The notes beneath the pieces were generated by a model. That model worked only from the letters and a program-made list of their open reading frames with translations. It searched no databases and was not told where the DNA came from. Below, piece by piece: positions 15,601-17,002 of a stretch of DNA of 64,000 nt (position 1 is the stretch's first letter; each line of letters begins with the position of its first letter). This stretch comes from Bispira polyomma. Its lineage: Eukaryota. The DNA is taken from positions 102,858,001 to 102,922,000 of the forward strand of contig OZ287750.1 in assembly GCA_965649765.1 (NCBI GenBank). Reading direction: 5' to 3'. The position numbers and the translations under genes are program-made.

Positions 15601-17002
15601 AAGCATCCCCGAAAGTTGTTGGTGCGGGGTATGAAGGCAAAACGAATTTTGCTTTTGACTCCCCTTTTAAAGTGATATTTAGAGCACGGGCTAGAAGTAA
15701 CAGAACTGCACCAAGTGATTGAATTTTCACCAAAGGCTTGTTTTAAGTCATTTCACGACCAGGTCACATCAGCCAGAAGAGAAGGGGATAAGAGTAAAGA
15801 CAAAGCAATCATTGCTGACACTATGAAACTTTTAGGCAACAGCGGATTTGGTTCAATGATTATGGATCAAGAAAAGCACAAAAAAATCATCTACTTGAGG
15901 GGTGAGAGAGAAGCCAAAATAAAGATTAATCTAGCTGGTTTTAAAAATTTGACTGAGTTGAGTGAGGATTTTTCTGAAATTGAGATGGCAAAATCCAAAC
16001 AAGTTTTAAACCTGCCCATTCAAATAGGTTATAGTATATTGCAGTATGCTAAACTTAAAATGTTAGAATGGTATTACGATTGTCTGAGTTATTACGCCGA
16101 CAAAGAAAATTTTGAATATATAGAAATGGACACTGATTCCGCATACTTTGCAATTACAGGGGAGAGTTTAGAGAGTGTGGTAAAACCCCATTTAAAAGAG
16201 GAATTTTTTAAAAAAATTTATCACTCTTGCGACATAGACGTCCTTACACCCAATCCTTATTGGTTCCCCAGAGAATGTTGTGAACACCACAAAGCATTCG
16301 ACCTGAGGCAGCCCTCACTTTTTAAATTAGAAAAATCAGGTGTAGAAATGTTGGCCCTTTGTTCAAAAACATATGTTTTACAAGATTCTGAGGGGCATTA
16401 CAAAATGGCATTGAAAGGGTTAAACAAAACATTTGTTGAGAATCCACTGCAGACGGCAAAAGAAGTTTTGAGCATGGGCAAGTCTTGTGAATCAACTAAT
16501 AAGAGTTTCAGAGTGCATGACAATACTATGTTTACCTATGAGCAAAAAAGTCTGGTTTTGTAAACTTTTATTGTAAACGTGAATTAGTGGACAATATTTA
16601 CACGAGTCCTTTAAAGTTAACTTTGTGTCCTTGGGAGGAAGAAAATATTCTTCCCTTATTTGACAGTGATATCTTGTCTCCAGAATAACCTTTCCAATTT
16701 TCTGAAAATCAAAAACAATTTCCAAATATAGGGGGTTATCTGAAAACGTTAGACTGTGATTCTATTTTTGAGAGAAATGCAAAAGTAAAAAAACTACTAC
16801 GTCAAAAACAACAGCAATGTGGTGAATTTAAAAAGTCCTTTCTGAAGTAAAAAACAATACAATTTTAGTTTGGGTCAATGAGGACCTTTATTGTGGCTGT
16901 GGATTGAACAAGACTTTGTTTAGTGTTACACTGTTTAAAGACTACCCAGGGGGAAATCAGTGGGGTGAATTATTAAGTGATTTTATAGTTAAGCCTTGGT
17001 GA
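12617..17002 (+). pseudogene. Protein-primed family-B DNA polymerase (pPolB) with N-terminal zinc fingers, OTU-like region, VSR-like insertion and C-terminal extension; stops, frameshifts and an internal deletion
   Basis: One frame from ATG 12617 passes stops at 12728, 13022 and 13832. Motifs: ExoI FIVYDFEA, FFPYEWFD, ExoIII YYNNLDV, motif A YDCNALY, motif B KLLGNSGFG, motif C EMDTDS. A further in-frame stop lies at 15673 (conserved W). Frameshifts occur near 14430, 14615, 16550 and 16840. Confidence 0.95.

Follow-up and report, generated by a model that had tools for sequence, protein, structure and literature searches.

The window is a stretch of 64,000 nucleotides from Bispira polyomma (contig OZ287750.1, positions 102,858,001 to 102,922,000). 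It contains a Polinton element whose DNA polymerase gene (pPolB) continues beyond the usual end of the polymerase. The features are as follows, in coordinates of the window:

10066-10071 and 30696-30701, 6-bp target-site duplication flanking the Polinton, read from the flanks
10072-30695, no strand assigned, Polinton element of 20.6 kb, bounded by terminal inverted repeats and flanked by the 6-bp target-site duplication
11851-12336, plus strand, BIR (IAP-like) gene upstream of pPolB (PF00653, E = 7e-18)
12617-17002, plus strand, whole pPolB gene, decayed (tblastn with the natural 1,564-aa ORF of locus L057)
16552-16634, plus strand, usual Polinton pPolB terminal motif, GFVNFYCKR...TSPLKLTLCPW
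16635-17002, plus strand, truncated C-terminal domain of pPolB with a predicted NADAR fold (122 aa in open copies)
16871-16873, plus strand, Trp codon, aligned with the catalytic Glu of the Phytophthora NADAR (E125 in PDB 8BAU)
16883-16903, plus strand, DLYCGCG stretch, corresponding to the D130/W133 region of NADAR, with Cys at the W133 column in the window copy
16943-16975, plus strand, YPGGNQWGELL, the G-x-N-x-x-G motif ahead of the last NADAR helix
17061-17708, plus strand, A32-like packaging ATPase (PF04665, E = 8e-6)
19569-20552, plus strand, retrovirus-like integrase (PF00665, E = 4e-9)
20708-21865, plus strand, presumably the major capsid protein, from its size and position
21910-22368, plus strand, adenovirus-like cysteine protease (PF00770, E = 2e-6)

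Polintons have target-site duplications of 6 bp, and the element in the window has the other features by which Polintons are recognized: pPolB, an rve integrase, a packaging ATPase, a protease, and terminal inverted repeats. IAP homologs, like the BIR gene, have been reported from adintoviruses. The ORF that we take to encode the capsid protein had no match in Pfam or among PHROGs. The right arm of the element has several ORFs of 130 to 225 aa on the minus strand (24800-30000); the four that we scanned had no PHROG match. No guanine ADP-ribosyltransferase family was found among the window ORFs that were scanned.

This copy of the Polinton is decayed. We compared its pPolB to locus L057, a naturally open ORF of 1,564 aa on another chromosome that comprises pPolB and the C-terminal domain. 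Identity across 12617-16999 is 78-91%, depending on the segment (tblastn), and the window copy has five stops (at 12728, 13022, 13832, 15673, and 16686) and four frame changes (near 14430, 14620, 16546, and 16836). The third frame change, at about 16545-16548, lies immediately upstream of the terminal motif. The frame of the terminal motif then runs on through ILSPE to the stop at 16686-16688, and beyond that stop the same frame extends to KKLLRQKQQQCGEFKKS. A frame change at about 16832-16841 leads into a second frame, which reads EVKNNTILVWVNEDLYCGCG...DYPGGNQWGELLSDFIVKPW from about 16832 and ends at the natural stop at 17000-17002. The initial annotation had described coding-like sequence past the end of pPolB, at 16640-17002, interrupted by one stop and one frameshift. 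The peptides that it quoted are present and the end at 17002 is correct, but the domain begins at 16635, right after the PW codons at 16629-16634. The count of one stop and one frameshift applies within the domain, not to the gene as a whole.

A DNA search of the B. polyomma genome gave 24 matches, and we compared 13 loci of the family (L001 to L013), of which L001 is the window itself. In 4 of the 12 other loci (L002, L006, L007, and L008), the polymerase terminus and the domain lie in a single open frame, in one case as an ORF of 1,564 aa. The remaining loci are partial or broken, and their breaks are at varying places. Thus, the breaks are peculiar to the window copy and the fusion of pPolB to the domain is the natural state: in the open copies, the polymerase does not end near 16640, and the frame downstream is conserved. 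Public assemblies also contain a fused relative that is 53% identical, and its cluster includes a member of 1,596 aa. Most of the tail-less relatives of pPolB stop within a few dozen residues of the terminal motif. Elsewhere in the genome, divergent families of Polintons carry a longer NADAR-like tail at the equivalent place; there are many distinct families with such long tails (133 scored places), some of them with open frames of about 1,800 aa.

We considered three other accounts of the sequence past the terminal motif. Chance coding-like DNA is ruled out by the open frames, by the ratios of nonsynonymous to synonymous changes (dN/dS, below), and by the homologs. A separate downstream gene is ruled out since four copies and more than 100 relatives have the domain in one frame with pPolB. 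Programmed readthrough or frameshifting is ruled out because copies elsewhere have an open frame at the two places and because the window's pPolB has nine breaks.

The three pieces of the domain in the window had no match in Pfam. Open copies from the family match PF08719 weakly (E = 1e-3 to 3e-2, or E = 2.8e-4 for the domain of an open copy alone), with scores of 15 to 22 bits across positions 89 to 156 of the profile only, which is below the curated cut-off of 35.1 bits. The long forms are above the cut-off, at 43 to 69 bits (E = 8e-11, 8e-12, and 1e-18). When one long domain was compared to the sequences in the PDB with phmmer, there was no match; a profile search of the PDB sequences found 2B3W and 8BAU at E of about 1e-4.

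An AlphaFold2 model of a natural short tail, built from an alignment of 43 sequences that included long-form relatives, had a pLDDT of 88. Among 48,161 chains, the three that are most similar to this model are the three solved NADARs: 8BAU (Z = 11.0, rmsd 3.3, 120 residues aligned), 2B3W (Z = 8.9), and 8BAT (Z = 4.6), with the next chain at 3.4. Foldseek put the same first two NADARs on top, at E values that are not significant (0.03 and 0.07), and in the ESM Atlas, a NADAR cluster ranked fourth with a score of 0.90, behind three unnamed clusters that scored 0.91. The model of a long form is closer to the known structures (Z = 18.5, rmsd 2.2, and 155 residues for 8BAU; Z = 14.3 for 2B3W). The short model lacks two helices of the long one, and it has the elements of the YbiA fold, which are a helical core and two small flanking sheets. 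Judging from these matches, the tail is a NADAR homologue, and it is predicted to adopt the NADAR fold. Both the ancestry and the fusion that had been proposed from the window alone are therefore upheld: the long forms pass the cut-off for PF08719 and the open copy also matches it, the best structures are NADARs, and the single frame recurs in 4 of the 12 other loci and in more than 100 relatives.

The tail is kept by purifying selection. Across six pairs of open family copies, its dN/dS was 0.11-0.38 (122 codons, Nei-Gojobori); for the core of pPolB, it was 0.12 (480 codons, one pair). For the long families, 12 pairs gave 0.13-0.32 in the tail versus 0.10-0.21 in the adjacent polymerase, with one pair undefined and synonymous sites partly near saturation. 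In 92 of 105 rows, 14-16 residues separate the polymerase terminus from the NADAR core, so there is no floppy tether. The join between polymerase and domain is real, old, and under selection. The best-conserved positions of the tail resemble positions in the core of the fold. The median net charge of the tail is 0 to +1, and with no consistent charge, a basic DNA-binding clamp is not suggested.

We then compared the catalytic site and the substrate pocket to those of 8BAU. In that structure, the distal ribose is held by E43 and E125, the pyrophosphate is contacted by K50, R79, W89, R93, W133, and D130, and the adenine is contacted by Y84, G78, and V81; loss of the acid equivalent to E125, or of K50, abolishes efficient hydrolysis (excerpts of PMC11543638). 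The catalytic residue is Glu in YbiA, Asp in DarG1, and His in phage NADARs (excerpts of PMC11543638 and PMC11125620). We aligned 118 fused rows and four NADARs from LINEs and mapped them on 8BAU. (Left out of the fused rows were six truncated proteins, a further truncated row from the first set, and P0071, which is described below; 13 loci of the B. polyomma genome were added.) At the E125 column, Glu is found in just 2 of the 118 fused rows and His in 3, and 72 have an aromatic residue (Tyr, Phe, or Trp). Among the long forms, many rows retain W89 (83 of 118), D130 (76 of 118), or W133 (74 of 118). All three of E43, K/R50, and E/D/H125 are present in 3 of 93 long rows; 11 have E43 and K/R50 and have lost E125, and 28 have none of the three. 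The three His rows, which resemble phage NADARs in this column, are P0192, P0172, and P0196, and P0192 also retains E43 and K50.

The window family has Trp at the E125 column and has no Glu, Asp, or His there. It lacks E43, and it has a Lys near the K50 column only within a gapped stretch. The lobe with K75, G78, R79, Y84, D86, and W89 is deleted: two N-terminal landmarks are 29 residues apart in the window family and 61-63 residues apart in full-length domains, and the family has lost about 33 adenine- and pyrophosphate-binding residues. Because of these losses, hydrolysis of ADP-ribose by the window family, as judged from the alignment, is very unlikely, and binding of ADP-ribose in the known manner is unlikely. 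An acidic pair, Glu-Asp, lies a few residues beyond the strand. The initial annotation had noted that the segment is shorter than a canonical NADAR and lacks the catalytic Glu, and both points were borne out. Its main suggestion, a working counter-defence or repair module, does not hold for the window family, and its fallback of an inactive derivative is supported. A role in counter-defence can plausibly be assigned just to the ancestor and to two rare relatives, P0122 and P0125.

To describe how widespread the fusion is, we searched with the C-terminal core of pPolB and examined the best 120 of 681 proteins. Among these, 82 have no tail, 37 have a NADAR-like tail, and 1 has DUF4326. The NADAR-like tails include 14 long ones (one of them truncated), 2 of the window's short type, and 21 of a second short type. 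The named relatives of the polymerase are molluscan, and all 7 of them lack a tail. A profile search of 1.84 billion representatives added more fusions: among the 150 matches listed, 75 of 148 new proteins have the pPolB terminal motif. The states of the tail are interleaved on the tree of pPolB, where 6 changes are required to place the tail-less label and strong branches force at least 3 of them, and the tail persists over lineages that are about one substitution per site apart. The substrate lobe has been trimmed in two groups.

The second short tail (P0007, P0010, P0070, and 18 others) is about 125 aa, is more eroded, and belongs to a separate clade of pPolB. Only its C-terminal motifs match NADAR, so its assignment is weaker: its own profile gives E = 5e-10 to 0.03, and one member was assigned by eye. 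In P0071, a DUF4326 domain (residues 1489-1569, E = 2e-19) takes the C-terminal place on pPolB that NADAR has in the other fusions. DUF4326 is proposed to process ADP-ribose phosphates (excerpts of PMC9503650).

In P0122 and P0125, sequence that is clearly pPolB leads into a NADAR domain that matches PF08719 at E = 1e-28 and 1e-27 (101 and 97 bits), and both proteins retain E43, K50, W89, E125, D130, and W133. Each is a single sequence, from contigs of 1.3-1.8 kb. When we sought longer relatives of P0122, only P0003 was found, and a scan of IMG/VR yielded 322 pattern matches and no confirmed case. A scan of metagenomes for Glu-keeping fusions gave 6 loci; the two that we inspected, L110 (an RNA virus) and L111 (a giant-virus-like contig), are not Polintons. 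In a quick IQ-TREE analysis of 61 domains, a branch with an SH-aLRT of 92 separates 34 fused domains that lack the Glu from the other domains, and the Glu-keeping fusions adjoin the degenerate domains, together with the NADAR that is fused to the RNA-dependent RNA polymerase (RdRp) of a picorna-like virus (support of 81-84). FastTree with 168 rows did not recover a single group; the label needs 7 changes there, and branches are long. The simplest reading of these sequences is that the fused domains had an active ancestor, and apparently active domains of the P0122/P0125 type likely survive in rare lineages, although these two could also be later re-acquisitions. On the metagenome contig L110 (2-1138), a picorna-like RdRp (RdRP_1) is directly followed by an active-looking NADAR, whose best non-self match among the domains compared is the Polinton fusion P0122 (44% identity). 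This likeness suggests that RNA viruses and Polintons may have exchanged the domain.

With moderate confidence, we consider the tail to be a folded, non-catalytic extension that probably packs against the polymerase. We favor this reading because the linker is constant, the charge is near neutral, and the tail and the polymerase are under similar selection. The packing itself is suggested by the constant linker. Since 82 of the 120 nearest pPolBs (the best 120 of 681) have no tail, the tail is dispensable for the fold of the polymerase. Its present role may be that of a folded cap at the C-terminal end, which would stabilise the polymerase or offer a binding surface. As for its history, a Polinton ancestor would have captured an active NADAR of the YbiA type at the C-terminus of pPolB, perhaps of the kind that invertebrate retrotransposons and RNA viruses carry, and the original job of this domain was probably to strip ADP-ribose off the element's DNA. 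In most lineages, the catalytic Glu would later have given way to another residue, in general Tyr, Phe, or Trp; two groups would have trimmed the substrate lobe; and other lineages would have lost the domain.

Alternatively, the dead domain might be a reader or a decoy that binds ADP-ribosylated DNA or protein, or a host ADP-ribosyltransferase, and that shields the replicating polymerase without catalysis. The residues that the long forms keep (W89, D130, and W133), the 11 long rows with E43 and K/R50 but no E125, and the ADP-ribose-associated DUF4326 in the slot of P0071 are in keeping with this, and phages do have non-enzymatic anti-DarT proteins, AdfA and AdfB (excerpts of PMC11825919 and PMC11481870). 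However, the adenine and pyrophosphate lobe is lost in the window family, an aromatic residue at the E125 column would probably fill the site of the distal ribose, and E43 and K50 vary freely in the long rows, over a quarter of which have none of the three residues, so we consider a reader or decoy rather unlikely. It is more improbable still that the tail is a functionless relic, which stays folded only since misfolding at the C-terminus would damage the polymerase and which persists until a clean truncation removes it. A relic would account for the many tail-less relatives, the repeated changes on the tree of pPolB, the trimming in two groups, and the concentration of conservation in the core of the fold. 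But a useless tail could be removed by a single stop at no cost, and this one has persisted across great divergence with dN/dS near that of the adjacent polymerase. We give very little weight to a rewired but active hydrolase that would free template guanines of ADP-ribose at the fork: the predicted fold is retained, NADAR subfamilies do use Glu, Asp, or His for catalysis, the acidic pair shortly after the strand is available, and some fused relatives appear from their residues to be fully active, yet the window family lacks any such residue at E125, lacks E43, and has lost about 33 residues of the pocket. Also, no partner transferase was identified: searches of the host genome with PF22596 and PF14487 (pierisin/CARP-1-like and DarT-like) gave no matches, but the controls for these searches were silent as well, so that this absence is uninformative. 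Homologues of CARP-1 have been reported mainly from bivalves, and endogenous ADP-ribosylation of G or C in eukaryotes is reported not to have been excluded (excerpts of PMC12945103).

A broader scenario, which we offer tentatively and think is probably not correct in full, is that invertebrate hosts ADP-ribosylate the bases of invading Polinton DNA and that a NADAR eraser on the polymerase was the answer of one Polinton clade, with P0122 and P0125 active at the fork and the dead versions acting as readers or decoys. If it were true, then, together with the NADAR candidates of LINEs, which number in the thousands in this genome, and the sister domain on an RdRp, it would make nucleic-acid ADP-ribosylation a general defence against mobile elements in these animals. 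In the conflict between bacteria and phages, NADAR-type enzymes are established as erasers of ADP-ribosylation on DNA. When such a domain sits on the polymerase that replicates a virus-like DNA element of eukaryotes, the replicating DNA is the target to which it points. For the window family itself, the result is more modest, since the window holds a pseudoenzyme within a copy that has decayed. The fused domains form a natural series, from apparently active to pocket-dead to trimmed to absent, and because of this gradation, the question can be tested with small soluble domains.

The fusion of pPolB to NADAR is apparently unreported. The polymerase family and the anatomy of the element (TP-vOTU-Exo-Pol) are those of published Polintons and adintoviruses (PMC11161782 and PMC8502044), and the tail adds a domain to that architecture; terms for NADAR, YbiA, and ADP-ribose are absent from the main texts of these two papers and from parts of their supplements. 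NADAR and YbiA are also absent from the main text of a 2026 preprint, and the supplement of PMC9503650 has no Polinton terms. Among the matches listed by a largely open-access literature search, no paper linked NADAR to Polintons beyond matches of names.

The closest known proteins are NADARs of the YbiA subfamily from Phytophthora nicotianae (8BAU) and E. coli (2B3W), which the Polinton domain resembles in predicted fold, in the order of motifs, in the D130/W133 region, and in the G-x-N motif. Unlike them, it is fused to pPolB, has Trp instead of Glu, and lacks E43 and much of the lobe. The phage protein AdfN (T4 gp30.3) and the NADARs of DarG1 are also NADARs on a virus or mobile element and are a model for the ancestral fusion, but they stand alone, have been shown to be active, and are matched to a transferase, DarT1, whereas the Polinton domain is a predicted pseudoenzyme (excerpts of PMC11825919 and PMC11543638). 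AdfN is a demonstrated counter-defence, and mutations in a phage polymerase can bypass ADP-ribosylated DNA (excerpts of PMC11825919). NADARs are also known from phages, giant viruses, and the polyproteins of RNA viruses (nidoviruses, hepe-like viruses, and picornaviruses of annelids and bivalves), which likewise have a NADAR in the replicase chain; their genomes are RNA, and in the excerpts of PMC9503650 and PMC11848433, none is fused to a DNA polymerase. The NADAR of L110 keeps its catalytic residues, unlike the window family.

Eukaryotic mobile elements have captured NADARs as well, in the Gypsy Pol of Ectocarpus and in ORF1 of a Tx1 LINE of oysters (excerpts of PMC12477816). These are retroelements, not Polintons, and their Glu motif is intact. 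Fusions of ORF1 with NADAR are abundant in B. polyomma too: a search with PF08719 gave 2,147 candidates, and all 150 that were scored are above the cut-off. The 11 NADAR loci that we inspected from L025 to L054 (such as L028, 613-1950 on the plus strand, and L040, 1498-2823 on the minus strand) look like LINE ORF1-type frames with a C-terminal NADAR whose Glu motif is intact, and 3 of them have an endonuclease-like ORF downstream.
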